A stretch of 64,000 nucleotides of DNA. Source: Ostreococcus lucimarinus. Its lineage: Eukaryota. Positions 3,867 through 50,770 of the stretch are shown here, in pieces. The notes beneath the pieces were generated by a model that saw only the letters and a list, made by a program, of their open reading frames with translations, was not told where the DNA came from and did not search any database. The translations under genes were made by a program, and so were the position numbers. The DNA lies in the NCBI GenBank assembly GCA_000092065.1, contig CP000591.1; one strand, 5' to 3'. How positions within the stretch are numbered: the first letter of the stretch is position 1; each line of letters opens with the position of its first letter.

Positions 3867-3982
3867 GTGACCCAGGCAGGAGTCGAACCCGCAACCTTCA
3901 GATAACTTCAACGGCGTCCTCGCGTTCGCGAGGAGACTCTCGAATCACTGGAGTCTGACGCACTACCATTGTGCTACCGAGC
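3867..3982 (-). tRNA. tRNA-Trp (anticodon CCA) with a roughly 44-nt intron between positions 37 and 38
   Basis: The reverse complement reads GGCTCGG-TA-GCAC-AATGGTA-GTGC-G-TCAGA-CTCCAG[intron]A-TCTGA-AGGTT-GCGGG-TTCGACT-CCTGC-CTGGGTC-A. This closely matches eukaryotic tRNA-Trp (GTCTGACTCCAGATCAGAAGGTTGCG). The intron sits at the canonical position. Confidence 0.7.
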
Positions 3983-4612
3983 CATACATATTAAAGACAC
4001 ATTTAAGTCCATATGATATGACTAAATGAGCGATAAACTCCAATTAATGCGCCCTCTCGCGGGGATCGCACATGTGTTACGGGCGCGTCGACGCGCGACG
4101 CGTCGCGCGCGAATTCGCGGTCCACGTTCGCGCGCGCCGCACACTCCGCACGGATCTCTCACCCCCACCACACCTCTCGAGCGCGTTCCGCCCTCGTACG
4201 GTCGATAAAACGCACGCAGTTTTATCGTTTCATCGTTTCATCGCAGTTCAGGTGCGGGATTCGCGCGCGCGCGCGAGAAGGACGACATCGGGCGACACCG
4301 CGGGATTCGCGCGAGGGGTCGGTCGCGTCGCGCGGTGGATGCGCGACGCGACGCGGCGCGACGCGACGCGAATCCTCGTCGCGGTCGCGCGCGCGCGGGT
4401 TCGGCGATACGTTTTCGTCGACGTCGAACGCGCGCGCGAGGACGCGCGCGAAACGATCGACGAGGCGCGCGCGCGTCGATCGAACGCGACGAGGATTCGA
4501 GGGCGAGATAAAGATGGGAGCGAAGGCGGGAGCGAAGGCGGGAGCGAGCGAGCGAACGACTGACGCGATCGATCGTCGCGCCTGATGTAGACTACGAACA
4601 CACAGAAGAAGA

Positions 4613-8723: not shown

Positions 8724-9467
8724 CCGCGCGACGCCGCGCGCGCGTCGTCGTCGCCGCCGGACGACGACGCGCCGACGCTCGCGCGCGCGCGCGAGGACGA
8801 CGCGACGCTGCGAACGAGCGAACCGTTGTTGACGCCGCGCGTGGCGCGCGCGCTGCGAGCGCGCGTCGAGCCGAGGGCGGGCGCGGTGACGTGGACGCGC
8901 GCGTTCGATTCGCGCGCGTGCGGATTGGCGAGTCTTCGTCGCGTCGTCGAGCGGTGCGCGGGCGTCGGACGCGCGCTCGTGCTCGTGCAACCCGAGGCGG
9001 CGGACGAGGCCGAGGCCGAGGACGAGGACGAGGCGTACTACGTCGCGCACGTCTCACCGGGTTTCCAAGCGAAGCCTCGGCACGATTTCCACGGCGACGA
9101 CGCGTGCAAGACGTTTCGCGTCGACGGAAAACGCGGCGTCGTCGTCGACACGTCCGGGGTCTCCGTCGCGCCGCTGTATTGCGCGTACGGCTACTCCCGA
9201 CACGGCGACGTCGTCAACGGGTTCGGGATGTTCGGTAAGATCGGGCGCCACGCCTTATTCGTGGACGCCGCCCTGGAAAACGCGCACGCGGACTTCGGCG
9301 CGCGTCGCTTCTCCGTGCGTCGCGTCGAAGTCTGGGCGCTTGAGGCGCGCGCGCCCGGAATCGACGCCGGCGCTTCGCCGCGCGCGGCGACGCGCGATCG
9401 AGCGACGATGGCGCAGTTTACGTCATCCGCGATCGCCCGCGACGTCCTCGACGCCACGACCGGCTGA
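8649..9467 (+). CDS. hypothetical protein whose C-terminal approximately 96 aa are duplicated downstream at 11611-11904
   Basis: 272-aa ORF. The N-terminus is low-complexity (MGAAPSSPSS..., possible MGxxxS myristoylation motif). A globular-looking region (AYYVAHVSPGFQAKPRHDFHGDD...GFGMFGKIGRHALFVDAALENAHADFG) spans the repeat boundary at 9175. No family recognised. Confidence 0.4.
8651..8726. repeat. (GTCGTCGCC)n microsatellite, about 8 units, in the divergent UGM / 8649-gene promoter and 5-prime region
   Basis: Direct reading. It translates as SPSSPSS on the plus strand and TTATTATT on the minus strand inside two different ORF extensions. Confidence 0.6.
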
Positions 9468-10119
9468 CATCAAGACCGCGACGGAACGTCGAGGAAAGAT
9501 CTCGTCGACGCGCTGTTTCGCGAGTGCGGCGGACCAGAAGGTGTGGGAGGCGCTGACGGATACGCGCGGCGTACGAGGCGACGTTCGCGGCGATTGAGGA
9601 CGCGCGTCGCGCGAGATAGATGATAGATTGATACTAGATAGATCTGATGCAGCTCCTAGGCAGTCTCCTACGCGGTAGGAGACCTTGTTGTAACATACGA
9701 TGTACGACGGATCCAAAAAGTGCGAGCACGTCACCGTCGACGACCCGTCCTCGAGCGCGCGAGCGCGACGCGCCGTTTTCAGTGACAAAAAAGAATGGCA
9801 ACTTTGTTACCTCACCGGGATTCGAACCCGAGTCTGTTCGTGGAAGCGCGTGGCGTGTCCGTCAGTGTCGCGTTCACAATTTTTGGTGTCAACGTGTCCG
9901 TTCGCGTGTTCACGTGCGATGGGCGCGAAGATGCGTAGAATACGTACCTCTAGGGTGAAAGCCTAGCGTGATAACCATCTACACTATGAAGTACCGCTCG
10001 ACCCCGCAAGGGGCCGCAGCGATCGATCTCTCCGATGTTTCGGAGTTCACGGGATGTACTCATGTTTCAGCTCGTCCACACTTTCGTGTGGCTAGATAGA
10101 GATGTGTGCGGCTTGACAC
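9175..10119. repeat. Copy 1 of a 945-bp direct repeat (segment A)
   Basis: Identical at the ORF-translation level in three frames to 11612-12556, with a constant offset of 2437 bp. Starts TGTATTGCG and ends GCTTGACA(C). Contains an ENY2-like gene fragment, a hairpin and a tRNA-like fragment. Confidence 0.8.
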
Positions 10120-10359
10120 GACGACGAGGTCGAACTCGCGGTCGCGAATCCGCGCGTCGCTCGCGACGCGGCGTCGTCGCGCGTCGTCGCTCGCGGGTGC
10201 GCGCGCGGCGCCATCACCGCGCGCCGCGAAGTGACGACGCCCGCGCCGCTCAGGAAAAATTTATATATCGCCCCTTTAGAGAGTACCTACACACATGACG
10301 AGTCATGAACCAAGGATGCGGGGAGATCTCGCCGTCGGCGCCACTCGTCGCCGCATACG

Positions 10360-11376
10360 ATGACCGATTCAGTCGCGCACGCCTCACCGACGTGGAGAAC
10401 GTACTCATTAGACCCGTCGCTGCAACCGGACTGGATGAACGGCACGGCGGAGGTAGAGGCGGTCAAAACAGCGGAGGATGAACTCGAGCGCTCGTACAAG
10501 AACAAGCCATTCTTCAAGAACACAAGCTACGAGGCATTCGCCAGAAAACGAGGCGAGTATGATAAACCGACGCCCGACGGCCTCGAGGAGTTCAAGCGTC
10601 TCCTACGGGCGAGTTATCTTCGCACCGTAGAGCGCATCGATGAAGATACCCAAGTTCTGGAAGCCCAGCTACAAGACGAGAATATCTCTGAAACGCGACG
10701 GTCGGTTATCCCGCAGCACATCGAGGACACTCGTGCGAAATTAAAAGAGCAAGACAATTCATTGAACGCGCTGTGCGCCGATGTGGATGCGGTTATCGCA
10801 GATTTGAAAGGCTTGCCCGATAAAATTGCCGACATAAAAGAACACGCCTCTGAACAACTTCAGCAACACAAAAGAAAAAGAACCAGTATATCTTTGGAAC
10901 GCAACCTCGAGGAGCTGAGCGATGCGCTGCGCAGCTACGAGGCGAAAAAAGAACAGGAGAGGCTCACAATTACCGATTATCGTGGGAAATATGGGTCATG
11001 TCCATCCCAGTATGTTCGCCAGACCGCCTGGGCACGCAGACCTTCTGGTCGTGAAGAAATTAGCTTCATTGTTCATCCTGTGGGTGTCATTGGCTGCGAT
11101 GGCAGTAACCTGAGCGTTGATGGACGTGTTTCGATTGATGGTTATGGTGAGTTTAACGTACCAAAATGGCAGCCTGAATGGGGACCTGAGAAGCAAATGT
11201 GTGCGTGCGAATGCTTCCAAGAGTGGTACAAAGTCGACGCCCAAGACCTTCTTTACAGCGCGCTTCGTGGCGTAGAGGGCGCGCTAAAGGCGCTCAGTGG
11301 TTCGGGAGATGACACGTCTTCGCTTCGACGGCGCTTGGGCGATGCCAATTTGGACGAAGCAAGCACGGGGAGTTAA
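10360..11376 (+). CDS. hypothetical coiled-coil protein, a compositional outlier at about 50% GC
   Basis: 338-aa intact ATG-initiated ORF with codon usage unlike the neighbouring genes. It has a Lys/Glu-rich predicted coiled-coil middle and a Cys/Trp-containing C-terminal region. Lies inside segment B between the two repeat copies. No family recognised. Confidence 0.45.
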   Translation: MTDSVAHASPTWRTYSLDPSLQPDWMNGTAEVEAVKTAEDELERSYKNKPFFKNTSYEAFARKRGEYDKPTPDGLEEFKRLLRASYLRTVERIDEDTQVLEAQLQDENISETRRSVIPQHIEDTRAKLKEQDNSLNALCADVDAVIADLKGLPDKIADIKEHASEQLQQHKRKRTSISLERNLEELSDALRSYEAKKEQERLTITDYRGKYGSCPSQYVRQTAWARRPSGREEISFIVHPVGVIGCDGSNLSVDGRVSIDGYGEFNVPKWQPEWGPEKQMCACECFQEWYKVDAQDLLYSALRGVEGALKALSGSGDDTSSLRRRLGDANLDEASTGS

Positions 11377-11447: not shown

Positions 11448-11611
11448 CGCCTCCAGTCTCGACACAGTATCACTGAGTTCACTGCGAAGTTCGTCGATTT
11501 GCTGATCTCTCGAGGCAACGGCGGCCTCTAAATCGGCGATTTGAGCGTCGTGCTCGACGATTCTTTCGTGCAGCTCCTGGTTTGACTTGACGAGCACAGG
11601 AATGATTTGAG

Positions 11612-12556
11612 TGTATTGCGCGTACGGCTACTCCCGACACGGCGACGTCGTCAACGGGTTCGGGATGTTCGGTAAGATCGGGCGCCACGCCTTATTCGTG
11701 GACGCCGCCCTGGAAAACGCGCACGCGGACTTCGGCGCGCGTCGCTTCTCCGTGCGTCGCGTCGAAGTCTGGGCGCTTGAGGCGCGCGCGCCCGGAATCG
11801 ACGCCGGCGCTTCGCCGCGCGCGGCGACGCGCGATCGAGCGACGATGGCGCAGTTTACGTCATCCGCGATCGCCCGCGACGTCCTCGACGCCACGACCGG
11901 CTGACATCAAGACCGCGACGGAACGTCGAGGAAAGATCTCGTCGACGCGCTGTTTCGCGAGTGCGGCGGACCAGAAGGTGTGGGAGGCGCTGACGGATAC
12001 GCGCGGCGTACGAGGCGACGTTCGCGGCGATTGAGGACGCGCGTCGCGCGAGATAGATGATAGATTGATACTAGATAGATCTGATGCAGCTCCTAGGCAG
12101 TCTCCTACGCGGTAGGAGACCTTGTTGTAACATACGATGTACGACGGATCCAAAAAGTGCGAGCACGTCACCGTCGACGACCCGTCCTCGAGCGCGCGAG
12201 CGCGACGCGCCGTTTTCAGTGACAAAAAAGAATGGCAACTTTGTTACCTCACCGGGATTCGAACCCGAGTCTGTTCGTGGAAGCGCGTGGCGTGTCCGTC
12301 AGTGTCGCGTTCACAATTTTTGGTGTCAACGTGTCCGTTCGCGTGTTCACGTGCGATGGGCGCGAAGATGCGTAGAATACGTACCTCTAGGGTGAAAGCC
12401 TAGCGTGATAACCATCTACACTATGAAGTACCGCTCGACCCCGCAAGGGGCCGCAGCGATCGATCTCTCCGATGTTTCGGAGTTCACGGGATGTACTCAT
12501 GTTTCAGCTCGTCCACACTTTCGTGTGGCTAGATAGAGATGTGTGCGGCTTGACAC
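11612..12556. repeat. Copy 2 of the 945-bp direct repeat (segment A-prime)
   Basis: Same sequence as 9175-10119. The duplicated ORFs 11611-11904, 11628-11894, 11777-12034, 11860-12225, 12084-12395 and 12137-12403 are identical to their copy-1 counterparts. Confidence 0.8.
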
Positions 12557-12700
12557 CGCACATCTGATGAATGACTGTGCGCTAAACTTTTTCACCCAGA
12601 AATCGCGTCGACGGACGCGCGAATGTTACGGTCGGGCGTGACGTGTTTTCGCACGCCGCGCGCCGCGCGTCGTCGCGTTCGTCGCATTCCGCACTTCGCG

Positions 12701-34167: not shown

Positions 34168-37100
34168 TCACTCTGGAGGTCGCGGCGCGCGGCGAAATTC
34201 TCGCGGAACCTTCGTCGTGCCGTACCTAGGAGCTGTGAACGTTGGTCGCTCATTGAGCGCTGCAATGTTTGAACTCACGACTACTTCGCTTGCCTCGTTA
34301 TTTGCGCTTTCTATCGACCGTTGACGTCGGAAGTTTTCTCCACCGTACCAACGATCGGAAGCCGCCTCTCGTTTAGCGAGTCGATCGGCATGGAGCGCAC
34401 TTCTCGCCCTGCGCTGTCGTTCGAGTCTTTCCGTCGGTGGTGGTGGCGGCGGATGACGCACAATCTTCGGAGTCGCCTGATCCGGGACCCTCTTAAATCC
34501 TGTGGTGCCTTTCACCATCGTCATACGACCTCCGATGGGTGGGGCCGGCCCCTTGCTCGGATCGGAATCGCGTTCGATTTCTACTCTACCGCCTCGCGTT
34601 GACTTTGCCTGGCGGTGCGAGTTTCCTGAATGTTCCCTTTCCTTCATTTTACGCCAGAACTCGTTCAATCGAAGCTTGGATATCGTCTCATCCTTCTGGC
34701 GTTGCCTCTCGACAGAGCTGTGAATGATTGCACTCACGTTGTGCAGCGTCTCGCGCGAGGGGGCCGCGCCACGTACATCTCGCACATCGCTACTTTCGTC
34801 GTAAAGCGTGATTGCCGTGAGAGCTGAATCGTCCGACAATAGCGCTCGCATATCACTTATGCCGCGCTCGGCCGCCGCGCGAACGCCGGCGTTGTCGTCG
34901 GTGTTTACGATTTTCAAGAGCACGGCGATAAGCTTGTCGGTGTCTTTTTGTAGCCCTTGTACTTTGATATCGCCGTATAGACGCCGATACATCGTCTTTG
35001 ACATCAACGCTCCCCCGGGCATTTTGCGCTTTGCCGCGTCCACGAACCTCTCGAATGCAGCATCCGTGTACGACCCCGTTACGGGTACCTCAAAGTCATA
35101 AAAATTGCCCTCGGTTCCCCATACGAAGAGAGTAATCAAATCCACCAAGGCGTGTATCGAGAGTTCACGCGTCTCAGCTTCATCGTCGATCAGCATACCG
35201 TACAACGCATCGTGCACAAACTGCGCCGCCGACATAGAAATGAAAGCTTTGTAAGATTTTTTTGATACCTCGCCTTCGTCAGATTTTGTATTCATCACTC
35301 GGTAAACTGCGCTCATCTCCAGTTTAATCGATTGATGAAGAAGCTCGATGGCGTGAATTTTCTCTCGTTCTTTACCGGGCTCCATACTAACGATCAAGTG
35401 AGAGAGAGCGCTCAAAAACTCAGATCTGCACGCATCTGCGTTCGTCAGCGCGTAAAGGATTTCAGAGACAAACGTCTCCTTGGACGATCCAGCGTGCGCT
35501 TCCATACATTCAAAGAGAACTTTCAATCCATCGACGGCAAACACGCTCGGTCCCGCGTCACCAACTCGAACTAAAGTCGCGAGAGTCCGAATGGAATAGA
35601 ATGATATCTGCTTGTCCGTGCTTAGTGAGGCGTCGAGCAGCGTCTTCATGAAATCATGCGCGAGCTCAAGTCTTTCTTCATCCGCCTCGTTTTGCAACCT
35701 CCCGACGGCGGCATAATAACCCAGAGAACTGAACCAATTCAATTCAGGTCTATTCTTCGCTTTGACTTCTTGACGTAGCCAGCTACGCGCGACGTAAGTC
35801 ACGCGCTCAGCCTTGTCTAGTCTGCGGACCTCATCCGTGTCCGGATCCCTCACGTGCGTAATGGCTTGAGTGAGCTTTTTCGCAATCGGTCTCGGTGGAA
35901 TCTCGAACGCATCGTCAATTATTTGACGAAACATTCTCGCAGATACGACGTAATCTTCGCCATACATATCCAAATCAATGTCATGAGCTTTAAACAAGAG
36001 CGTCGACATGAGGTTTGCGAAGTCAAAAGACTGAATGCACTCCATCGATACCGTCGCCACGGTCGCTTGAAACGTTTTACTCTCCCCACCCTTGATGCAG
36101 TCTTTAACCGTGGAGACAATCGATTTGACCGCCTCCCATGTCGACGCTGGACTATCATCGTCGCACCAAAGTGCGATCTCTACCGTTCCCTGGACATACG
36201 CATGTATCACGCTTCTGATGAATCCTTCGCCGGCTACTTGGAGAAATTCTTGGTCTGGATCATCGATGATACAATGCATGATGATACCGAGCTCCTCAAA
36301 AGCGTCACTAGCTGTATCCCACGCGTCTCCAACGTCTTCATTCTCGCCGTCTTTCGTCTGCGAGGCCCTTGGCATGTTCGTCTTCTTCACCAAGGGAGAG
36401 AGCAATTGAGTGCGTTGCTCTGTGCTGAGAAGGTTATAAAACGCCACGAGCGCGACGACGCGATCTCTTCTATTCTCTGCCTCAACTTGTTCTTTGATAA
36501 ACTCCGGCGTCATGATCTTCTCAACCTTTTCCACTTGCTCTGGATCGCTCAATTTTTCAAGCTCTGAGCGAATGCACTTGTGATCTCCAAGACTATGATT
36601 GAAGACACGCACCATCACCATCGCGATCAACGTCATGATGATGCCAATCACAACTCCCGGGCGCGTCCAGTTTGAACCACCCGTGTGTGGAACTAAGCCA
36701 TGAGACATCCAAGGTGGATTATTGAAAATTCTCGAGAAATAGGTGACGACGGCGAACATAAACGCGCCACCGAAAGCACCAGCTCTCGATTCATTCCGCT
36801 TTTGCCCGAACCCGCGCAAAGACTGAATATTCATGTGCGCCACGAGTAAAACGAGGCAGACTACTACTGGCATGATATTTCGCAACGAGTTCAGACTTTC
36901 GAGTCGCGCCACGGAATCAAGTGCAGGGACGCCATGACCCGGAAGTTCACCTTCCATGTACGCCGCGATCGTAGCCAAGGAGACCTTCAAAAAGATGCTT
37001 AACATCTCAAAAATTGGGACGGGGCGTAAGTTGGGTTCAAGCGTCTCCGATACCACAGCCATCTTCATCGATACTGCAATCGCGCCGAGGCCAACGAAGA

Positions 37101-39006
37101 GTGAAATCATCAAGTTATCGCCGAAACTCGCGCTGGGGTCCTTCGACACGTGAATCCAAGGCGTCGGTGTGAACGACGTCGTCACCATGAGAAAGCCGAG
37201 CGAAGCAAAAACCATCGGAACGAGAGCGACTCGCAGGATTAACACGCGAAGTACGAACCCGACAGCTTTCACACGGTCTCTAAAGTCGCCCACGCGTTTC
37301 GAGTATGTCCTGCGCCTCAACGCGTACTCCGCCATGAGCTCCATTCTCTCAGCAGCTTCGCGAGGTATCAAGCGCAAATTGAGCGGCGAAGTCGTCTCCA
37401 AGCGCACGGTTCGGAGTATAGCTTCATCGCTACCGTTCTCCCACGCGACGTCGGGAACAACTTTGAAACGCTGTTTTTCGCGATCGCGCACTGGAGTGAA
37501 ATCATCTCGCATCGCAACTGGTTGAAGAAGAACACGTCGCATCGTCTTGCTCATCATCGCGTGCACTTTGGCCAACTTGTTCACTTGCACAGTCTCTTCG
37601 TCGACTTGCGCACCGCCACCTGATTCGGCGTCTGGGTCGTCCGAGTATTGCGTTAATGTTTTATCGCCGCCAAGCTCTACGTACTCCGCGAATGCCCACA
37701 TGCATTGATCAAAATGGTCTCGGACACGTCCACAAAACTTGACGACTACAGGGCAAATGACAACGCCGAACAAAAGCACGACGAACCAGTTCGTGAGCTC
37801 CGTCTTGGCACCACGCTCCGTCATATCCGGGCCGAATAAACCAGGGTAGAAGAACACGTCCGCTATCGCATCGCGATACATTTCGTTTGAATGACTCGAG
37901 CGGCGCCATGCAAACGCCGTAAATGCAAAGAACTCGATGTACAGCTGGAATCGAAGAAGATTGTGGCTCCAATACTCCTTGTCCAAGACCTTGGCCAACT
38001 TGTAACGAAACATTAGTGCAAACGTAGCGCTCCTTAGTCGCACGGTGTACTTCACCCACGCCATAAGTTTCGATGCGGTCGCGACAAGTTGCTCGCCAAC
38101 CATACTTCGACGCCGCTCGGCGCGCTCCGTTGCGTACAAATTCTTCTGAAACTGTTCCTCAGCTTCGTTCCACAGTCCCGCCTCTTTGGCCGCTCGTTCT
38201 CGCGCCGACTTTTTCTTGTCGACGAGTATATTTTTCAAATCTCGATCTAAATCAATCTTCGTGACGTACGTGATGTGCTCGCTCTTAATCTCCTGCGTCA
38301 ATTCATCCAGCTCTCGCTTGTACTCGTCATCCAACTCTGCGTCGGCTTCACCGCTCCCAATCATCTTATAAGACGCCCCGACGTCTAAAATAACGTTTCT
38401 CTTATCCTCGAAATCGGAAGATTCAAGATTTCGACCGAACGAGTACGCACAAAACGCGGCGAACGCGATGAACGCCGCCGCCACAGCGGTATTCGTCGAC
38501 GTCTCGCAAGTCCACGAAACCTCCACCTCGAGCGTCTGACTCGCGTAACAACCGTTCGTATCCACCAATGCTGCAGAATACTTCCCCTCGACGTCCGGTC
38601 GCAGCGTCGCCCGCGCGCTTCCATCGACGTCAAACGTCGCGTTCGCGAACGACGTCGCGTTCGTCAGCGCGCTCGTCGCCGGCCACGACATCAGCACCCA
38701 CCGCCGCGTCGCATCACTCGCGCTCTCGAACACGTAATCATCAAAGCATCGTTTCTTAGTCGCGTCCAGCGTCGTGGCGTCGTAGGGATCGCCACCGCGA
38801 CCGGCGATTTCGAGCGTCGTCGCCTTGGCGCCGTCGTCCGCGCGCGCCGTCACCGCCGCCATCGACGCGCTCGACACCGAGCACTGCGGCAGCGCGTCCA
38901 CCGCGCGCGCGAGCGCGAGCGCACCGATCACCGCGAGCGTCAACGCTCGCGCGGCGCCGTTCGCGCGCGCGCGCGTTCGCCGCGCGCCTCGTCGTCCCCG
39001 CGGCAT
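34168..39006 (-). CDS. large multipass membrane protein of unknown family, about 1,613 aa
   Basis: Start taken at MPRGRRG... with a signal peptide (ARALTLAVIGALALARAVDA). A cysteine-containing extracellular N-region is followed by roughly 10-11 hydrophobic helices and then about 800 aa of alpha-solenoid-like cytoplasmic sequence. GC is lower, about 50%. The first 303 aa of the track ORF overlap the LIG4 5-prime region and are run-through. Confidence 0.5.
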   Translation of the reverse strand: MPRGRRGARRTRARANGAARALTLAVIGALALARAVDALPQCSVSSASMAAVTARADDGAKATTLEIAGRGGDPYDATTLDATKKRCFDDYVFESASDATRRWVLMSWPATSALTNATSFANATFDVDGSARATLRPDVEGKYSAALVDTNGCYASQTLEVEVSWTCETSTNTAVAAAFIAFAAFCAYSFGRNLESSDFEDKRNVILDVGASYKMIGSGEADAELDDEYKRELDELTQEIKSEHITYVTKIDLDRDLKNILVDKKKSARERAAKEAGLWNEAEEQFQKNLYATERAERRRSMVGEQLVATASKLMAWVKYTVRLRSATFALMFRYKLAKVLDKEYWSHNLLRFQLYIEFFAFTAFAWRRSSHSNEMYRDAIADVFFYPGLFGPDMTERGAKTELTNWFVVLLFGVVICPVVVKFCGRVRDHFDQCMWAFAEYVELGGDKTLTQYSDDPDAESGGGAQVDEETVQVNKLAKVHAMMSKTMRRVLLQPVAMRDDFTPVRDREKQRFKVVPDVAWENGSDEAILRTVRLETTSPLNLRLIPREAAERMELMAEYALRRRTYSKRVGDFRDRVKAVGFVLRVLILRVALVPMVFASLGFLMVTTSFTPTPWIHVSKDPSASFGDNLMISLFVGLGAIAVSMKMAVVSETLEPNLRPVPIFEMLSIFLKVSLATIAAYMEGELPGHGVPALDSVARLESLNSLRNIMPVVVCLVLLVAHMNIQSLRGFGQKRNESRAGAFGGAFMFAVVTYFSRIFNNPPWMSHGLVPHTGGSNWTRPGVVIGIIMTLIAMVMVRVFNHSLGDHKCIRSELEKLSDPEQVEKVEKIMTPEFIKEQVEAENRRDRVVALVAFYNLLSTEQRTQLLSPLVKKTNMPRASQTKDGENEDVGDAWDTASDAFEELGIIMHCIIDDPDQEFLQVAGEGFIRSVIHAYVQGTVEIALWCDDDSPASTWEAVKSIVSTVKDCIKGGESKTFQATVATVSMECIQSFDFANLMSTLLFKAHDIDLDMYGEDYVVSARMFRQIIDDAFEIPPRPIAKKLTQAITHVRDPDTDEVRRLDKAERVTYVARSWLRQEVKAKNRPELNWFSSLGYYAAVGRLQNEADEERLELAHDFMKTLLDASLSTDKQISFYSIRTLATLVRVGDAGPSVFAVDGLKVLFECMEAHAGSSKETFVSEILYALTNADACRSEFLSALSHLIVSMEPGKEREKIHAIELLHQSIKLEMSAVYRVMNTKSDEGEVSKKSYKAFISMSAAQFVHDALYGMLIDDEAETRELSIHALVDLITLFVWGTEGNFYDFEVPVTGSYTDAAFERFVDAAKRKMPGGALMSKTMYRRLYGDIKVQGLQKDTDKLIAVLLKIVNTDDNAGVRAAAERGISDMRALLSDDSALTAITLYDESSDVRDVRGAAPSRETLHNVSAIIHSSVERQRQKDETISKLRLNEFWRKMKEREHSGNSHRQAKSTRGGRVEIERDSDPSKGPAPPIGGRMTMVKGTTGFKRVPDQATPKIVRHPPPPPPTERLERQRRARSALHADRLAKREAASDRWYGGENFRRQRSIESANNEASEVVVSSNIAALNERPTFTAPRYGTTKVPREFRRAPRPPE

Positions 39007-39319
39007 GGATTCGCTCGCCTCGGACGCGCGCGCGCGCGCCCGCGCGCTCGCGCGCCCGCGCGCGCCGCCCGCGCGCGCGGCGCCGAGCGATGACATCGCG
39101 CTACGCCTCGCGCATGCTCGCGAGACGACGGATCGCGGGCGACGCCGTGCGTCGCGGTTTACCGTCGCGCTGCAAACGGTCGATGACTCCGTCAGAACGC
39201 GACGACGACGAAGACGACGACGAAGACGACGAAGACGCGCGCGCGCGCGCGACGGAGGCGCGGCGAAACGCGCGTCGGCGTCGCGACGACTGCGCGGCGC
39301 GAACGCGCGCGTGACGGCG

Positions 39320-42304
39320 ATGGACGACGTTGCGAATGATTCCGGGCACCGTCTCGGAACGCGCGACGGCGGCGACGACGACGACGACGACGCGGAAGAG
39401 GACGGCGCGCGGTTGACGAGCGAACCTTCGACGTCGGGCGCGTCGCTGAGATACGCCACCGCGCGCGACGTGCCGTTTCGAAAGCTGTGCGGCGCGTTCG
39501 AGGCGTTGCAGAACGAACGCGGTCGGTCCAAGGCGACGAGCGCGCGGCGGTATCGAGTGCTCGATACACTGCACGATCGATGTCTCGTGAGCGCGCGCGA
39601 TGGAACCCGCGTCGACGCGTTCGACGCGTATCGGTTGATACTGCCGGCGTTGGACAAGGAACGAGGGGCGTATTTCTTGAAACACGACGCGTTGGCCAAG
39701 GTGGTGGTGTCGGCGTTCGACATGTCTCGAGCGAGCGAGGACGCGAAAAAGTTGGAGGATTGGAAACGAAAGGGTGGCGGTAACTTTCCGCAAGTTGTTC
39801 GAGACGTTTTGGCGGGTGGACATCTCGCGGATCGTGAGAAAGATGAAGACGCGCGCACGTTGACCATCGGAGACGTGAACGAGGCGTTGGACGCATTGGC
39901 GGCGTGCGATAACAAGGATCAGCGCGCGTCGACGCTGCGGGCGCTGTTTTCAAAGATGGATGCGACGCAAGTGAAATGGACGTGCGCAATCATATTAAAG
40001 GAAACAAAAATTTCAATGGGAGAGAAGGCGATATTGCGTCATTATCACTCCGAAGCGAATGACTTGTGGGATTGGACTAGCGATTTGCGAAGAGTTTGTG
40101 AAGACTTACCGCGGCGAGACTTCCGGATGAAGCGCGAGGACATCGATGTGGGCGTAGGTTTAATTAATCCTCAGATGGCGAGAAGGCAAAACAGCATCGA
40201 TGCCGTGTACCGCGCGTTGAAAGGTACGCAGTTTGTCATCGAAACCAAATTCGACGGCGAGCGCATTCAAATTCACAAAGACGGCGACATCATCAACTAC
40301 TGGACGAGAAACATGAACGATTTTGGCCCTCGTGGCTACGATGTGATGAATGCTCTCTTTCGTCATTTGCCAAAGCGATGCATTCTCGACGGCGAACTCA
40401 TGGTTTGGAACAAGCTTCGCGATCAGTCGTACCCGTTCGGCGCGTTGAAGAATCTCATCAAGGCTGCAAATATGCGCAAGGCCAAGGATGAATTGTTTCC
40501 ACTCAAGGCACACCTCGAAAACCGTGATGGTGGTGATAGCGACGGTGAGGAGGATCTCATGAGCTCCAAGTATGCGTGGTACGCCGAGAACGTAAAGAAA
40601 CTCACGTATGGAGACTTGGAATTGGTCTACGTTCCGTTTGATATATTGTATGCCGTCGATCGAAGTGTGAAGACTCATAAGCTGAGAGAGCGGCATGAAC
40701 TTTTGAAAGAGCATGTGCGTGAAGTATCAGTCATGTGTGGGAATATTCGTGCTAGAATTCTTCTCGCGACGCCCGATTGCGCGTTCTCACGTGTAGGCTC
40801 AACGAAGGAGGATATCGAGCGCGCGCTGTTAGAAGCGATGGATAACGGAGAGGAGGGATTGGTAATCAAAGATCTCGACGGTCCATGGATACCAGGTGAT
40901 CGTAGCAATAACTGGATGAAAATCAAACCAGACTACTTATCGAGTGAAGATTTGGACGTCGTTCTCATCGGCGGCTATTACGGCGCCGGTGAGTTGCGCG
41001 GGGGCAAAATTTCGCAGTTCCTCTGTGGCATTGTGGAGGCAACGAACGATCCGATTAGCACCGCTTCAGATGGAGTCAAAATCATGAGCTTTTGCAAGGT
41101 AGGTACTGGTATCAGCGCCATGCAGCTCGACGATTTGAGAAGTCGGCTAGGCGACTTCATGCACAGAGAAAAGCCTCAAGACATGAACTACAACGTCACG
41201 GATGCTTACAACGAAAAGCCGGACGTTTGGATCTGGCCTCCTCAGCGATCATTGGTTGTGACGGTGAAAGGTGACATTCGTGCGATTCGCACGACAACTT
41301 TCGCAACTGGTTACAGCCTGCGTTTCCCCCGCGTCACCGGTATTCGATATGACAAAAAATGGTCCGACATCTTGACACTCTGCGATCTCTTAAAGACGAT
41401 TGAAGAGGAAGTACCGACATTGAAAGTGAATATCGACGATACACGAGGCGGTACGAATGCCCGAAAGCGTTCGCGCACGACGGGACCCGCGACGCTACTA
41501 CCTGCACATCTCATGCCGGTTGACGTTTCGGGCGTCGTGCAGGAATCTGAAATCTTCAAAAACATGCAAGTGCACATCGCGAACTGTGAAAGTCGAGAAC
41601 AAAAGCAGGAGCTGTTCAAAGCTGTCATCGCACGTAGTGGTACTACGAGTGAGTTGTGGCACAAGCATGTGACGCACAGCGTTGCGTTGAACCGCGACGG
41701 CTCAAAGTTCAGGACGGCGAGTCGGGAAGGCGATGTGTACACGATTGCCTGGCTCCAAGAGTGCATTCACGAAGGACGTGTGGTACCGCCGAAACCTCGA
41801 CATCGCTTACATCTCTCAGCGACGACGTGGTATGGTACGGATGCCATGGATCGATACGGAGATGATCATTTCTCGGACTGCAATTTGGCCGACGTACACG
41901 CGCTCGTGCATCAAGTTGGCGATCAAACTAAGCGTTGGAAAACTGCCGAAGTTCCAGCATTGGTGGAGCTCGATCGCGAGTATCCATCGGTGTGTGCTGA
42001 TGTGAAACTTTTGACGTTTAGGGGTTGTGTGTTCGAGATTGACGATTCTCTCGGCAAAGATGCGCGTGTTGATGAGCAGAGTAGTATGTTTCCAAGTGTG
42101 CTGGCGGGCGAACGTCGAAACGTCGAACAGATTCTTCGGATTTATGGTGGAAAGCTCGCACCTGAAGGCAGAATGGGGACACATATTGTGCGCATGTACG
42201 ATGACTCCGTTGTCTTTGAAGATATGGATGATGGAAGAAAGCAAGTTTCGCTCTCTTGGGTGAAACGTTGCATCGACCGGTCGACAACGGCTGATGTAGT
42301 CTAA
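39320..42304 (+). CDS. LIG4: DNA ligase IV (ATP-dependent, NHEJ) with tandem C-terminal BRCT domains
   Basis: Adenylation motif ETKFDGERIQIHKDG, OB-fold region, and two BRCT-like modules (IFKNMQVHIANCESREQKQELFKAVIARSGT and LRIYGGKLAPEGRMGTHIV). ATG at 39320 (MDDVANDS). Confidence 0.85.
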   Translation: MDDVANDSGHRLGTRDGGDDDDDDAEEDGARLTSEPSTSGASLRYATARDVPFRKLCGAFEALQNERGRSKATSARRYRVLDTLHDRCLVSARDGTRVDAFDAYRLILPALDKERGAYFLKHDALAKVVVSAFDMSRASEDAKKLEDWKRKGGGNFPQVVRDVLAGGHLADREKDEDARTLTIGDVNEALDALAACDNKDQRASTLRALFSKMDATQVKWTCAIILKETKISMGEKAILRHYHSEANDLWDWTSDLRRVCEDLPRRDFRMKREDIDVGVGLINPQMARRQNSIDAVYRALKGTQFVIETKFDGERIQIHKDGDIINYWTRNMNDFGPRGYDVMNALFRHLPKRCILDGELMVWNKLRDQSYPFGALKNLIKAANMRKAKDELFPLKAHLENRDGGDSDGEEDLMSSKYAWYAENVKKLTYGDLELVYVPFDILYAVDRSVKTHKLRERHELLKEHVREVSVMCGNIRARILLATPDCAFSRVGSTKEDIERALLEAMDNGEEGLVIKDLDGPWIPGDRSNNWMKIKPDYLSSEDLDVVLIGGYYGAGELRGGKISQFLCGIVEATNDPISTASDGVKIMSFCKVGTGISAMQLDDLRSRLGDFMHREKPQDMNYNVTDAYNEKPDVWIWPPQRSLVVTVKGDIRAIRTTTFATGYSLRFPRVTGIRYDKKWSDILTLCDLLKTIEEEVPTLKVNIDDTRGGTNARKRSRTTGPATLLPAHLMPVDVSGVVQESEIFKNMQVHIANCESREQKQELFKAVIARSGTTSELWHKHVTHSVALNRDGSKFRTASREGDVYTIAWLQECIHEGRVVPPKPRHRLHLSATTWYGTDAMDRYGDDHFSDCNLADVHALVHQVGDQTKRWKTAEVPALVELDREYPSVCADVKLLTFRGCVFEIDDSLGKDARVDEQSSMFPSVLAGERRNVEQILRIYGGKLAPEGRMGTHIVRMYDDSVVFEDMDDGRKQVSLSWVKRCIDRSTTADVV

Positions 42305-42350: not shown

Positions 42351-43688
42351 ATGCGCACGTCACAGGACTTGGCTCTTTTAGAACCATTTGTTCCGAAGGC
42401 GGCGAAATGGCTCTCGTCGCACGCAGCTGATGGATGTCTCTCCATTTCACGCCGCCGCGGGAGAGCCGCCTTGCTCTTTGTGGATATGAATGACTTTGTA
42501 AAAGTTAGTAATGGTGCGGTTCGCGAGCACGCATTGGCTGCCGCATCTTTCAACCACATTCGCCCGTCTATATACGGTAAACGGCGCAACCTCGAGGCCT
42601 CCGCTCGATGTGCAGCGTGCTTACGAGACGTGCTCGCTGAATACTTTTCTATACTCGCAGACATCGTGAGCGCGTACGACGGCGAGGTGTTGGCATTCAT
42701 AGGGGACGCCATGCTTGCTGCGTGGTTCGTACGCGGCGACATGGATGACGATGAAGAGATGCGGTGCGCCACAAAACGGGCTCGGCTCTGCGCGCAGGGC
42801 ATTCTCACGAATGTTCACGGGCGTGCCTTGAAAGAAATTGTCACCATCACGCTGAAAGCGATGATCTCTGCAGGCCCAGTCGTCGCCATTCCCACCAAGT
42901 TTCCCAATCATGCACGCGGTGTGGTGGTAATCGGTGACGCGTTTGATGACTTAAGAGCGATGAAGGGATTAATGCAATCGGGGAAGGTCGTTTTCAATGC
43001 GTTAAGTTGCGCACTCCTCGCATCGGGTGGAAACAGAGACACGGCGAGCGCAACGACATCGATTTTCACGACACTGCCACGCGCGCGTGTCAAGGAATTC
43101 ATCCCGTCGCACGTTTTCAACGCATTTGCAGATGGTTTGATCGGGTTCGACGATAAAACACCTTCCTTGAGCGAGGTGTGTACCGTCGCCTTTGTGCGAT
43201 TCAATCCCAAAGGAGACGACTGTGTAGTCGAATGCATCGGCGTCGTGCATCGCGTGGTTTCGCAATATCAGGGCGTTGTTTTGCAAAGTATCGTAGATGA
43301 CAACGGGCCTTCGTGCTTGTGCGCGTTCGGCGTTCCCGGAACCCCCAAGCGCGGCGCGACGACGAGAGGATTGCGATTCGCGCGAGATCTCTTGAAAACA
43401 CTAGACGGTGCGCTGACGCACGCGCGGTGTGGGTTGTCCACAGGCGTCGTGAACATAGGTGCCGCGTGTGAGGTGAACTCTAAGTCGCATTCCGAGTTCT
43501 CGCTCGTCGGTGTCCCAGTGATACTGGCCGCCCGACTAGCTGATGCGGTGAAACCTGGCGTCGCGGCGATGGATGAAGAGACGCGTGTTTGGGCGGCTTC
43601 AGCGCTCAACAATAATGCGCGTACGTCTCGCATTGAATTATGTTTAAAAGGTTTCCCGCGAGCGATGACAACGTTTATCATAGAGTAG
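42351..43688 (+). CDS. class III nucleotidyl cyclase with two tandem cyclase-homology domains (soluble adenylyl cyclase-like core)
   Basis: CHD1: AALLFVDMNDFVKVS...DGEVLAFIGDAMLAAW, with both metal-binding Asp positions present. CHD2: CTVAFVRFNPKG...GLSTGVVNIGAACEVNSKSHSEFSLVGVPVILAARLADAVKPG, lacking the Asp pair as in sAC C2. About 55% GC. Confidence 0.65.
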   Translation: MRTSQDLALLEPFVPKAAKWLSSHAADGCLSISRRRGRAALLFVDMNDFVKVSNGAVREHALAAASFNHIRPSIYGKRRNLEASARCAACLRDVLAEYFSILADIVSAYDGEVLAFIGDAMLAAWFVRGDMDDDEEMRCATKRARLCAQGILTNVHGRALKEIVTITLKAMISAGPVVAIPTKFPNHARGVVVIGDAFDDLRAMKGLMQSGKVVFNALSCALLASGGNRDTASATTSIFTTLPRARVKEFIPSHVFNAFADGLIGFDDKTPSLSEVCTVAFVRFNPKGDDCVVECIGVVHRVVSQYQGVVLQSIVDDNGPSCLCAFGVPGTPKRGATTRGLRFARDLLKTLDGALTHARCGLSTGVVNIGAACEVNSKSHSEFSLVGVPVILAARLADAVKPGVAAMDEETRVWAASALNNNARTSRIELCLKGFPRAMTTFIIE

Positions 43689-43708: not shown

Positions 43709-45987
43709 CTATTCAATATCACCAAGTCCTGTCCTAGTTCTGTCGTCTTCGTCTCTTGATTGTGCGGCGCACCGCGTGTCGGCGAGCGCCTTGGGTAATT
43801 TGTAAGCCCACTCACACGAGCATGTTATTGGATCTTTCAATACCTCTGTCACGACGCCTCGAGTGGCGAGACGAGATTGCTCTCCCTCCGCGATGCCGCA
43901 GTGCCGCTCCACAACTCGCGGCTCGTACTCTTTTCCATCCTTTCCCCCGCCGCTGCGAGGTCGACCTTGCTTGTCGTACGCTTCGTTGAAGCAGAAGTAC
44001 TGGTCGTGGTTGAGCGCGTTGTTGATCGCCGTATCAAATGCCTCGTCCTTTTGTTTATCATCGAAACCGCAAAATGAGCCTTCATCGAGTTGGTCGATCA
44101 TGATGACGCCGTGATCGTTATACGATTCCAGCGCCTCGACGGCGTCACTCGCTGAGAAACCGCGCTCGATGACGACATCAGCCATGTTTTTGTCGTCTTT
44201 CGCGCCAATTTTAACGTGAATGACATCTTCTCGAACGTTCCCTTTAAGTCGCATGTCTTCGAGGAACCCTGCTTCGCGAAAATCAACGCCCAAGTCATGC
44301 AAGCCTTCGAGGTTGTAGATGTGATCCATCGGGCACGCGTACGGCAAATGCGCCGTCTCGGCGCCGAGCGCGCGACATCCGGCGAGCGTGTTCCATATTT
44401 TATCGCAGTAACATCGCGCGGGTGGTAGCACAAAGATTCGTCCGAGCGCTTTCGCCAGGGCGAAGCCGTTTCGAATCGTCGTTCTTCGCAATCTGTCCTC
44501 TTCAAAGTGTCGCGTGATGGCGGTTAAATACGCATCGTTTTCCATGCCGATGGCCCGAGAACCATTGAACTTCATCTGCGACCCTTTGGTGGAGATGGTC
44601 AAGTACTTCTTTGGCTTCCAATAATCTGTGTCATCGTCTGCATACCATAAACCATGCTGTCGCAGTCTTTGACGCTTGCCGTACGCGTACCGCGCAGAAT
44701 CGCCGTATTGGTACGTCGTGTGCACCGCGTACGGCTCACCGTCCTCGGGGTGGTACAAGTGGTGCTCTTGCACGAAGAAAGTATGACCGTTGGAGAATTG
44801 CGCGATGGGCAAAACGCCCATGCGAATCGTGCTGTTTGCTGCGAAGACGATCGAGCGATACCCCGGTAATCCGCGCTTGTCATCGGGAACCGCCACCGCG
44901 GGCGCGAGCGCGGGAGATCCTTCGCGCACGAGCAAATTCAGCGCCGGCTGGTCGCGCATCCACGCGATCTCGCTCGTCGCTACTTTTTGCTTCCACTTTT
45001 CCACGAACGCCTTCGCCGGCTCCGTGGGCCGAATGTGCACGATGCCCGTGTTAAAGTTGACGTTGCGACAGTTGGCGTTGTCGGCGCGATCGTTCACGGT
45101 GTCGATGCAATCGCTCGATATCAGCACGTCCGCGTATGCGTAAGTGCCGTTGTTGAATAGCTCGCGCGGATCGCGCATCCAAACCACGTCCGCGTCGCTC
45201 AGAATCGGCGCTATCCCAAGCTCGAGCAAATCTTGAATAAACTTCGTCTTCACCGTGCCCATCTTTTTAAACGTCTTGCTCTTTTGCGTGATGAACTCTT
45301 GATCCCTATTATCCAACACTGACCGCCCCGTGAGCAGCATGGATGGTATCCCAGCCTTAACACATAGTGTGTGCATCTCTTCGTCTAAAGCGCCGACGAA
45401 TATCGGCTCTAAACTCAACTTTTTCGCCGCCGCCGCCCAATTGAAGACGAAATCCTGCACGCTCGCCGTGCCAAACGTCACGAACATCTCCCCCCCAGCC
45501 TTAGCGCCGACCCGCCGCAACTCCTCCGGCACGTGTTCCATCTTCTTTCCAAGCTCCATTTTCGCCGCATCATCGAGCGCATCCGCGGAAACGTCCTTCC
45601 ACGCCTGTCGCATCCACTTCGGCTCGTCGTCGTCGATCGCCAGCCCCGCGAACGTCGTCGCCGGCGGTTCCAACAGCGCGAAATCCATCCCCCGATCCCT
45701 CGGCCTCGATCCCGTCGACGCCGCGTCATCGCGTCGGTTCAATTCCACCCGTCCTTTTTCTCCCTCGTCCGTCGTCGTCGTCGTCGTCGTCGCCGACGCG
45801 AACCGATTTCTCCGCGTCGCCGACGCGTTCGCGTTCGCGTTCGCGTTCGCGTTCGCCGCCGCGTTCGCGTTCGCGTCCGCGTCCACCGCCGCCTCCACGG
45901 CCGCGTCGCTCCGCGCGCGCGCCGTCGCGTCGTACATCGACGCCGACGCGTCGTCGCCCGCCCTCCGCGCCGTCGCGTCGTCGATCG

Positions 45988-46021
<34 letters not shown>

Positions 46022-46177
46022 CGCCATCGCGCGCGCGTTCGCCTCGCGCGCCGTCGTCGCGGCGTCCGCGATCGCGCCGTCGCGCGCGCCGCCGCGCGCG
46101 CCCTCGCGCATCACCATCGCGCACGCCGCGACGACGGCGACGCACGCGAGGCGGCGCGCGAGGCGGCCGCGACGCAT
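43709..46177 (-). CDS. nucleotide-diphospho-sugar transferase, GT77-like type II membrane glycosyltransferase
   Basis: Start taken at MRRGRLARRLACVAVVAAC (signal anchor). Ala/Asn/Thr-rich stem. Nucleotid_trans-like catalytic region with LSDADVVWMRDP (DxD) and a Cys-rich C-terminal domain. The track ORF upstream of about 46177 is Arg-rich run-through. Confidence 0.5.
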
Positions 46178-46603
46178 CGCGTCGCCTCGCGTCCCGCACT
46201 GACGCGCGCGGCACCGACGCGCCTCGCGTCGACGAGCGAGCGAGCGATGGACGCGGTGCGCGACGCGACGCGACGCGACGCGAGACGCGAGACGCGCGCG
46301 CGAGGCGACGCGACGCGCGCGACGAGAGAGGGCGACGCGCGCGCGAGGCGATGATGATTCGACGCCAACCGACGACGATCGGATCGGCGCGAGAACGGAC
46401 GCGCGAAGACGCGCGGCGCGAGGACGGACGCGCGCGACGACGCGACCGTGGACGCGCGAACGATCGACGCGCGCGGACGCGACGCGCGGCGACGGAGAAG
46501 AGGAAACGAAGACGATGAGACGATTGGAGCGATTGTTTGACTGACGGCGACGACGGCGCGGCGACGACGATTCGAATAGGCGATCGAAAAATGGTGCGCC
46601 GAG

Positions 46604-47338
46604 ATGGGCACGACGCCCGAAAAGGTGGTGACGATGTACTTGGATGAAAAGTTTAAGTCGGCGACGGTCGAGGGGGAACTTTTGGCCAAGTGTGAAAACT
46701 TGAAGACGCTGTCGTGCGCGTCGTGCGGGTTGACGACGCTCGCGGGGTTCCCGGCGCTGGCGAATTTGAAGGATTTGAGTTTGAACGATAATCGCATCGC
46801 GGATGGGTTGGAAGCCTTGGTGGGGTGCAAGGCGCTCTCGTCGTTGTCGCTGGCGAATAATAAGCTGGCGAACGTGGACGATTTGAAAGCCGTGGCGGAG
46901 GAGTTGACGCTGTCGGTGCTCGAGTTGGAGGCGAATCCGTTGACGGAGAACGAAGACTATCACGAAAAGGTCATGACCATGATGCCCACGCTTAACGTGT
47001 TGGACGGAAGGGACGAGTTCGGGAATGAGATCGAAGACGACGACGAAGACGACGACGAAGACGAAGACGACGAAGACGACGAAGACGAAGACGAAGACGA
47101 CGATGAAGACGACGAAGACGCAGACGAAGACGAAGACGAAGACGAGTCCGAGGAAGAGGAAGAGGAAGAGGAAGAGGAGATGGGCTTAGCCGATCTCTAC
47201 GGCGACAAGCCGCTCGAAGACGACGACGACGACGACGACGCTTTCGTCGAAGACGAAGATCCCGAGAGCGAAGACATCGACGAAGAGGAGTCGGACGACG
47301 ACGAAGACGAAGCGGCGGCGAAAAAGCCCAAAATATAA
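46604..47338 (+). CDS. ANP32: acidic leucine-rich nuclear phosphoprotein 32 (ANP32) family protein
   Basis: LRR plus LRRcap (LSLNDNRIADGLEALVGCKALSSLSLANNKLANVDDL...NPLTENEDYHEKVMTMMPTLNVLDG) followed by a long poly-Asp/Glu tail and a basic KKPKI end. Confidence 0.75.
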   Translation: MGTTPEKVVTMYLDEKFKSATVEGELLAKCENLKTLSCASCGLTTLAGFPALANLKDLSLNDNRIADGLEALVGCKALSSLSLANNKLANVDDLKAVAEELTLSVLELEANPLTENEDYHEKVMTMMPTLNVLDGRDEFGNEIEDDDEDDDEDEDDEDDEDEDEDDDEDDEDADEDEDEDESEEEEEEEEEEMGLADLYGDKPLEDDDDDDDAFVEDEDPESEDIDEEESDDDEDEAAAKKPKI

Positions 47339-50691: not shown

Positions 50692-50765
50692 GTTGGGTTG
50701 GTATAGTTGGTTATTACGTCCGCCTCACACGCGGAAGGTCAGGAGTTCGAACCTCCTACCCAATA
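50692..50765 (+). tRNA. tRNA-Val (anticodon CAC)
   Basis: GTTGGGT-TG-GTAT-AGTTGGTTA-TTAC-G-TCCGC-CTCACAC-GCGGA-AGGTC-AGGAG-TTCGAAC-CTCCT-ACCCAAT-A folds as a cloverleaf, with one mismatch in the D-stem and G1-U72. Confidence 0.75.
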
Positions 50766-50770
50766 CGCGC

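Follow-up and report, generated by a model that had tools for sequence, protein, structure and literature searches.

A compact sAC-like tandem cyclase-homology-domain gene beside DNA ligase IV in Ostreococcus lucimarinus

Described soluble cyclases and the Ostreococcus gene

Mammalian soluble adenylyl cyclase (sAC, ADCY10) is a 1610-aa protein from which splicing or proteolysis yields a short form, sACt (PDB 4CLF), that consists of the catalytic domains C1 and C2 and holds all the elements needed for catalysis (PMC12867704). The gene described here lies in a 64,000-nt stretch of Ostreococcus lucimarinus DNA (GenBank assembly GCA_000092065.1, contig CP000591.1), called the window below, and occupies positions 42351..43688 of its plus strand, the strand to which all coordinates refer unless stated otherwise. 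Its 445-aa product resembles sACt in size and in carrying two class III cyclase-homology domains (CHDs) on a single chain, in the same order as C1 and C2. Further points of likeness are the metal-binding Asp pair and pyrophosphate-binding Lys in the first domain, a Thr or Ser together with the transition-state Arg in the second, a degenerate second site and a soluble character. The algal core differs from sACt in being a complete gene. On balance, the sequence and the structural model point to a class III nucleotidyl cyclase of the sAC type, soluble and made of one chain, that would be active and would most likely make cyclic AMP (cAMP).

Several other described systems are comparable with the algal protein. 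For the comparisons that follow, homologues are divided into a family, defined as the tail-less cyclases linked to DNA ligase IV, and a second tier formed by the next profile matches, which are mostly long sAC-like proteins. The closest relatives outside the family are long CHD-CHD-AAA_16(STAND)-TPR proteins from Chloroflexota, Cyanobacteria, Planctomycetota, Actinomycetes and protists or fungi. The family matches these proteins, some of them bacterial, at 110-146 bits, compared with 79 bits for metazoan sAC, and they carry a C-terminal NTPase/TPR region of ~900 aa that the algal protein lacks. Spirulina CyaC and other class IIIb enzymes (PDB 1WC0/1WC1) are homodimers with two equivalent sites, in which each subunit matches one half of the algal protein. 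PaPycC (PDB 6YII), which has tandem CHDs and belongs to clade A of the Pycsar pyrimidine cyclases, is 11% identical to the algal protein and, unlike it, is a component of a bacterial anti-phage operon with an effector partner; its structure entered the PDB under the name 'AC-like ATP-binding protein' and now counts as that of a Pycsar pyrimidine cyclase (PMC11224242). Membership of the algal protein in the Pycsar group was considered and rejected, the PADLOC PycC models matching at 32 bits or less over residues of about 91-199 only and the neighbouring genes encoding ligase IV and a glycosyltransferase.

A phmmer search against all PDB sequences returns human ADCY10 as the top match (E 1.4e-11) in two colinear stretches, which pair residues 86-216 with sAC 66-190 and residues 300-411 with sAC 322-431, and a profile built from ten family members lifts the human match to E 3e-21. 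The AlphaFold2 model of the 445-aa protein, with a mean predicted local distance difference test score (pLDDT) of 69.6 and a predicted template modelling score of 0.74, contains two beta-alpha-beta-beta-alpha-beta domains, with cores mostly at pLDDT 75-90, joined by a disordered linker. The best 24 Foldseek matches are all human sAC catalytic cores, matched at full length (best E 2.9e-20, template modelling score about 0.62). The initial annotation of this gene had proposed two class III CHDs arranged like sAC C1-C2 and had called for an alignment with the human catalytic core. That core proves to be the best solved match both by sequence and by predicted fold, and the motifs that had been listed are present in the protein (FVDMNDF at residues 43-49, IGDAM at 117-121, VAFVRFNPKG at 279-288 and CLCAFGVP at 322-329). 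Sequence and model together assign the CHD fold to the protein and place its two CHDs in the order of sAC C1 and C2.

The first domain, CHD1 (residues about 33-225; 42447..43025), is C1-like, aligns to sAC 66-204 and would supply the metal ligands; its beta-alpha-beta-beta-alpha-beta core is modelled mostly at pLDDT 75-88. The region that follows its helix alpha1 (residues 52-84; 42504..42602) holds a family-specific insertion of about 22-24 residues, found in Ostreococcus-like algae only, that has no counterpart in sAC or in the 20 second-tier proteins aligned with it by MAFFT. Within this region R79 is invariant across the eight family lineages, and in a 10-sequence family alignment G76 is invariant and R78 and S84 are nearly so. 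The inter-domain linker (residues 226-270; 43026..43160) has pLDDT <50 at residues 227-271 and the highest ratio of nonsynonymous to synonymous substitution rates (dN/dS) of all segments, 0.28-0.41. The second domain, CHD2 (residues 271-445; 43161..43685), is C2-like, aligns to sAC 285-431 and has a degenerate metal site. The sequence shows no evident membrane segment; the 19-residue stretch with the highest Kyte-Doolittle mean, 1.68, falls inside a predicted core beta-strand. A transmembrane adenylyl cyclase of the AC1-9 type was also considered and rejected, because 445 aa are too few for two six-helix domains.

Active-site residues and competing readings

Residues were mapped through hidden Markov model columns and through the MAFFT alignment, which included sAC and 20 long relatives; counts in the second tier are out of 144 proteins. 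Residues 1-469 of the sAC reference are 100% identical to 4clf_A, so that published residue numbers apply, and the roles of the sAC active-site residues are taken from Table 1 of PMC12867704.

CHD1 keeps both metal-binding Asp residues, as had been annotated. The first, D45 (sAC D47), lies in the motif VDMNDFVK (residues 44-51; 42480..42503) and the second, D119 (sAC D99), in AFIGDAM (residues 115-121; 42693..42713); both are invariant across the eight lineages, and D119 is also present in 144/144 second-tier relatives. Equally invariant are K169 (42855..42857), which corresponds to the pyrophosphate 'receptor' K144 of sAC, and R395, which corresponds to the transition-state Arg R416 that contacts the alpha-phosphate. 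The segment that contains R395, SLVGVPVILAARLA (residues 384-397; 43500..43541), also includes S384, the counterpart of the adenine contact T405, and I391, at the position of sAC N412; residue 384 is Ser or Thr in the family. Across the eight lineages 62 of the 445 positions are invariant, and all five that are homologous to sAC catalytic residues are among them (hypergeometric P 4.6e-5).

In CHD2 the position of the first metal Asp (sAC N298, the C2 counterpart of D47) is occupied by R283, or by Ser in one lineage (P0051). At the counterpart of the second metal Asp there is an invariant Asp, D316, within QSIVDDNG (residues 312-319; 43284..43307). The annotated absence of metal ligands from CHD2 is therefore right for the first position and wrong for the second, acidic one. 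As judged from the alignment, the second, symmetry-related site is degenerate as in sAC, with R283 in place of the metal Asp. A substrate-binding stretch of the form 'VN.AaRl' that had been read in CHD2 is not found there by a regular-expression search; the true segment is GVPVILAARLA, which keeps R395 and has Ile for the conserved Asn.

If the protein operates as an sAC-type enzyme, its two CHDs would fold back on each other and pair within the chain as a pseudo-heterodimer, with a single active site at their interface. CHD1 would contribute the metal ligands D45 and D119 and the pyrophosphate-binding K169, and CHD2 would contribute the base contacts Q312 and S384 and the transition-state residue R395. 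The protein amounts to the catalytic core alone, without the STAND-NTPase/TPR tail, and such a core can suffice, since sACt carries all the catalytic elements. Conversion of ATP to cAMP would be the most likely reaction. Catalytic activity, substrate and regulation are all matters that we infer from the conserved residues and the homology described above.

A number of features weigh against this interpretation. The phosphate loop of class III cyclases holds the triphosphate. In the algal protein the sAC sequence S49-G50-F51-T52 is replaced by N47-D48-F49-V50, with N47 and D48 in 7/8 lineages (K47 and N48 in P0051) and F49 and V50 invariant, so that the Gly and Thr of the canonical class III loop F-x-D-h-x-G-[FY]-[ST] are changed in every member. 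The canonical form D-h-x-G-[FY]-[ST] is present in 131/144 second-tier relatives and DMNDFV in 0/144. Q312, at the position of the base-recognising Lys (K334) of sAC, is invariant in the family, where the second tier has Lys in 68/144 and Gln in 53/144. The ribose- and product-binding Asn (N412) is replaced by Ile, Leu or Val in 11/11 family members, compared with Asn in 133/144 relatives; in membrane cyclases, turnover falls strongly when the equivalent Asn is mutated. In addition, the Pfam model PF00211 matches CHD2 only, at 15.2 bits, below its gathering cutoff of 21.9 bits (the precomputed match of the O. tauri-type orthologue is likewise 'faint'). The gene also evolves faster than its neighbours, with 34-44% identity between cyclases where ligase IV retains 60-71% and the glycosyltransferase 59-70%.

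Among the alternatives, one that we regard as unlikely but worth stating is that the enzyme is active with a remodelled pocket that gives it a different or broader substrate, so that it makes cyclic GMP, a cyclic pyrimidine nucleotide or a mixture and not mainly cAMP. The substrate-specifying residues, whose inspection had been proposed on the expectation of either Lys with Asp or Glu with Cys, conform to neither set: the pair is Gln312 with Ser or Thr384, which is neither the adenylyl cyclase pair (Lys with Asp or Thr) nor the guanylyl cyclase pair (Glu with Cys). The family's combination at four functional positions is seen in 0/144 second-tier relatives, and the missing ribose Asn and the acidic phosphate loop belong to the same remodelled pocket. 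Mycobacterium tuberculosis Rv0386, an adenylyl cyclase that has a Gln/Asn pair and shows guanylyl cyclase activity on the side, also speaks for this reading. The pair is not special to the family, however: Gln is common in sAC-like relatives, and two long ones, P0059 and P0085, have Gln with Ser. Nor do the weak matches to the PycC models, which cover the generic core only, or the setting of the gene, in eukaryotic nuclear DNA without an adjacent effector gene, lend weight to a pyrimidine product, and the documented messenger of Ostreococcus is cAMP rather than another cyclic nucleotide (PMC2873908). One metagenomic sAC-like CHD-CHD protein of 1484 aa (P0115) has Glu and Cys at the base positions, a guanylyl cyclase signature, and Ile at the position of the ribose Asn.

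We give a similarly low probability to a catalytically dead or very weak pseudo-cyclase that would make no second messenger and would bind a nucleotide or another small ligand in the role of a sensor or scaffold. Such a protein could account for the loss of the ribose-positioning Asn in all members, the Gly-to-Asp and Thr-to-Val changes in the phosphate loop, the sub-threshold Pfam score and the fast evolution, with a dN/dS slightly relaxed at 0.20 relative to 0.16-0.17 in the neighbours. Pseudo-enzymes typically lose the metal Asp pair, the pyrophosphate Lys and the transition-state Arg, whereas here these residues are invariant between proteins that are 31-48% identical. Loss of the Asn is itself compatible with catalysis, as salmon sAC, which has Arg there, is still active (PMC12867704), and the textbook case of an 'inactive' tandem, 6YII, has since been reinterpreted as a cyclase (PMC11224242).

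Somewhat less probable again is a scenario in which a long sAC-like ancestor gave rise to the tail-less cyclase restricted to Ostreococcus and the rebuilt pocket gives it a property unseen in known sAC, such as a product other than cAMP. Part of the pocket appears older than the loss of the tail. P0059 and P0085 share the Gln/Ser pair, which therefore predates that loss, and have Val at the T52 position, but they keep Gly50, Lys95 and Asn412. The changes at Gly50, Lys95 and Asn412 and the insertion after helix alpha1 are, by alignment, specific to the family.

The comparison with sAC also bears on regulation, for which the position of the bicarbonate-binding Lys (sAC K95) is informative. This position, residue 115, is Ala in the family, or Ser in one lineage, where 104/144 second-tier relatives have Lys or Arg. 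Residue 202, at the end of VIGDAFDDLR (residues 193-202; 42927..42956; V193 is sAC V167), corresponds to sAC R176, the bicarbonate/Asp99 switch, and is Arg in 5/8 lineages, Lys in one and Gln in two. In salmon sAC, K95 is replaced by Asn and the N412 position is taken by Arg; the enzyme is active and is not stimulated by bicarbonate, its K95N substitution abolishing bicarbonate sensitivity (PMC12867704). From the Lys95-to-Ala change in the family and the insensitivity of the salmon enzyme, bicarbonate insensitivity is predicted, and activation in the style of sAC is probably absent. Control by substrate, metal or pH would be likelier than control by bicarbonate.

It is accordingly very improbable that the protein is a functional orthologue of animal sAC, directly activated by bicarbonate and serving as an inorganic-carbon sensor in a photosynthetic cell: the overall sAC-like fold, the alignment of Arg202 with the switch Arg176 and the presence of Ser or Thr384 at the Thr405 position, where a Thr has served to mark bicarbonate-responsive class IIIb cyclases, would suit such a role, but Lys95, one of two key bicarbonate ligands, is missing from every member, Arg202 is replaced in 3/8 lineages, and the restriction to Ostreococcus-like algae together with the greater similarity to CHD-CHD-AAA_16-TPR proteins argues against one-to-one orthology. 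Unlike mammalian sAC, the algal protein has Gln for Lys334, Ala for Lys95, Ile for Asn412 and N-D-F-V for the canonical S-G-F-T loop, and it has no STAND/TPR tail. Because it departs from sAC at each of these points, the label that fits the sequence is that of an sAC-like tandem-CHD cyclase and not of an sAC orthologue.

Gene model, neighbours and distribution

The reading frame, of 445 codons as initially annotated, is intact from ATG to TAG and has no intron. It starts at the first ATG, and an in-frame TGA lies four codons upstream. The whole-gene dN/dS is 0.20-0.23, compared with 0.16-0.17 in both neighbours, and the open reading frame (ORF) is a real gene under purifying selection. Antisense ORFs that overlap it were set aside, since the conservation and selection signals lie in the plus-strand frame.

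Codons 1-136 (42351..42758) are absent from the public gene model but are coding. Their dN/dS of 0.17-0.23 resembles that of the rest of the gene; many N-terminal residues are invariant in the 10-sequence family alignment, including L10, F13, P15, W20, D45 and D119, and A39, V44, D45, M46, F49, V50 and D119 stay invariant across all eight lineages. Both the substitution ratio and the conserved N-terminal residues support the long 445-aa ORF as the correct model, and the exact 445-aa protein is present on seawater metagenome contigs. In the same 90% cluster is the O. lucimarinus CCE9901 entry XP_001420310.1 (A4S4Q7), labelled 'predicted protein', whose 309 aa match residues 137-445 at 100% identity; it starts at Met137 and so lacks the first 136 residues and both metal-binding Asp residues. 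In O. tauri, the 376-aa entry OUS46582.1, named 'nucleotide cyclase', starts just after VDMNDFVK and lacks the first metal Asp, and metagenome gene calls often begin at Met46. In two family members (P0007 and P0008) the called start overlaps the 3' end of ligase IV and is probably too long. Cloning from the public 309-aa or 376-aa models would yield a dead fragment without one or both catalytic Asp residues.

Upstream of the cyclase lies the gene for DNA ligase IV (39005..42304; Pfam DNA_ligase_A_N/M/C and BRCT), a syntenic neighbour given here for context only, whose stop codon is 46 nt before the cyclase ATG. A fusion of the two was rejected on account of their differing reading frames and of the in-frame stop four codons upstream of the ATG. 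Downstream, a convergent gene on the minus strand (43709..46177) encodes a Nucleotid_trans glycosyltransferase (PF03407, E 3.9e-46); the two stop codons are 20 nt apart, which bounds the 3' end of the cyclase. The order ligase IV, cyclase, glycosyltransferase is kept in every family locus, down to 34% identity, and the family proteins end 0-12 residues past the last strand, with a conserved C-terminal position in all lineages. The conserved convergent neighbour and the conserved end leave no space for a regulatory tail or further exons, and the 445-aa protein has no Pfam match to an AAA_16 or TPR domain. The absence of the long regulatory C-terminus, which had been annotated with the proviso that a downstream exon be looked for, is thus borne out; an extension through such an exon is ruled out.

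The gene had also been noted as about 55% GC and poorer in GC than its surroundings. The difference is real at 0.552 compared with 0.62 for the window, but it is not specific to the gene, as low GC at third codon positions (GC3) is common to its neighbours: 0.596 in the cyclase, 0.608 in ligase IV and 0.626 in an upstream 1899-aa ORF. The low GC was therefore rejected as a signal of horizontal transfer, since the GC3 of ligase IV and of the 1899-aa ORF is equally low. The window is ordinary eukaryotic nuclear DNA and contains genes for Pol alpha subunit B, adaptin, dihydroxyacetone kinase, Pol eta and DCP1.

An exhaustive profile search of 1.84 billion representatives returns six family representatives at E 1e-83 or better, followed by a gap to E 1e-37 and then by thousands of matches, mostly of 1300-1400 aa, in which one stretch near the N-terminus spans both CHDs. 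Those sampled have Guanylate_cyc, AAA_16 and TPR domains, the layout of full-length sAC, and named examples include a protein from a Planctomycetota metagenome-assembled genome, a chytrid protein and 'Adenylate cyclase type 10' of Hondaea. For one long relative, the nearest counterparts of the tandem core are CHD-CHD-AAA_16 proteins of Chloroflexota, cyanobacteria and actinobacteria. A bacterial 444-aa tandem-CHD ORF (P0373; locus L017, 5001-9111), the one checked as a possible compact example outside the family, was rejected, because its AAA_16/TPR part sits in the next ORF, of 938 aa, which it overlaps by ~40 nt on the same strand; the pair is the long sAC-like architecture in either split or frameshifted form.

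Seven lineages make up the ligase IV homologues with 58-100% identity, below which there is a step down to 42% or less. In the next-nearest of these loci (GC 0.65-0.71) ligase IV is followed by an ABC1 kinase, and a cyclase-like ORF is absent at or near the syntenic position. These cyclase-free loci and the six representatives of the exhaustive search leave a Mamiellales-wide distribution unsupported, and from the sequences the family looks confined to Ostreococcus and its closest kin. No viral relatives were found in IMG/VR viral contigs, and four family members scanned against NCBIfam gave no match. A literature search found no paper describing this cyclase protein, although adenylyl cyclase-domain sequences in O. 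tauri and M. pusilla are mentioned, unnamed, by Kasahara et al. (PMC5159850).

Other features of the window were recorded alongside the cyclase locus. The 1899-aa ORF (34168-39867, minus strand) has no Pfam match, and its place, divergent from ligase IV and upstream of it, is taken in the family loci checked (L007-L012) by a large gene with products of 1454-1601 aa and no recorded Pfam match. Ligase IV (38825-39600) and the glycosyltransferase (45300-46960) both have N-terminal parts that are very GC-rich and of low complexity (poly-Arg, Asp-Gly and Ala-Asn repeats), and these tracts, rather than conserved domains, explain a large share of the GC variation in this region. Two directly repeated copies of about 956 nt (9170-10125 and 11607-12562), 99% identical and spaced 2437 nt apart, flank a 338-aa ORF (10360-11376, plus strand; low GC3, 0.56) of no Pfam family. 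Each copy holds a 187-nt intron-containing tRNA-like Rfam match of 41.5 bits on the minus strand (9807-9993 and 12244-12430) that is not called by ARAGORN. Elsewhere in the window there are a 116-nt intron-containing tRNA, detected by Rfam only (3868-3983, minus strand), and a standard tRNA-Val(CAC) (50692-50766, plus strand).

Candidate role in Ostreococcus cAMP signalling

To our knowledge, sAC-type enzymes are insensitive to forskolin, a property that matters for any link between this gene and the physiology of the alga. As a messenger, cAMP has been measured in O. tauri, where the signal gates cell division, and the cyclase behind it was left unnamed (PMC2873908). The 445-aa cyclase is a plausible but unproven candidate for the source of this signal in Ostreococcus. 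Forskolin raised cAMP in O. tauri (PMC2873908), which sits poorly with an sAC-type source, and O. lucimarinus is reported to have modular rhodopsins that include cyclase modules (PMC7693036). Because other cyclase-domain proteins are reported in this species, the 445-aa cyclase is not the sole candidate.

Should the enzyme prove ordinary, the family would be one more divergent class III cyclase. The protein nonetheless offers a natural experiment in cyclase enzymology, as it has no tail, no bicarbonate Lys and no ribose Asn and has an acidic phosphate loop, yet holds the metal and transition-state residues strictly. For the biology of Ostreococcus, the gene is a concrete and tractable candidate, being small, intron-free and predicted to encode a soluble product, and the function, substrate and regulation of a small soluble protein are directly approachable in a genetically tractable alga.

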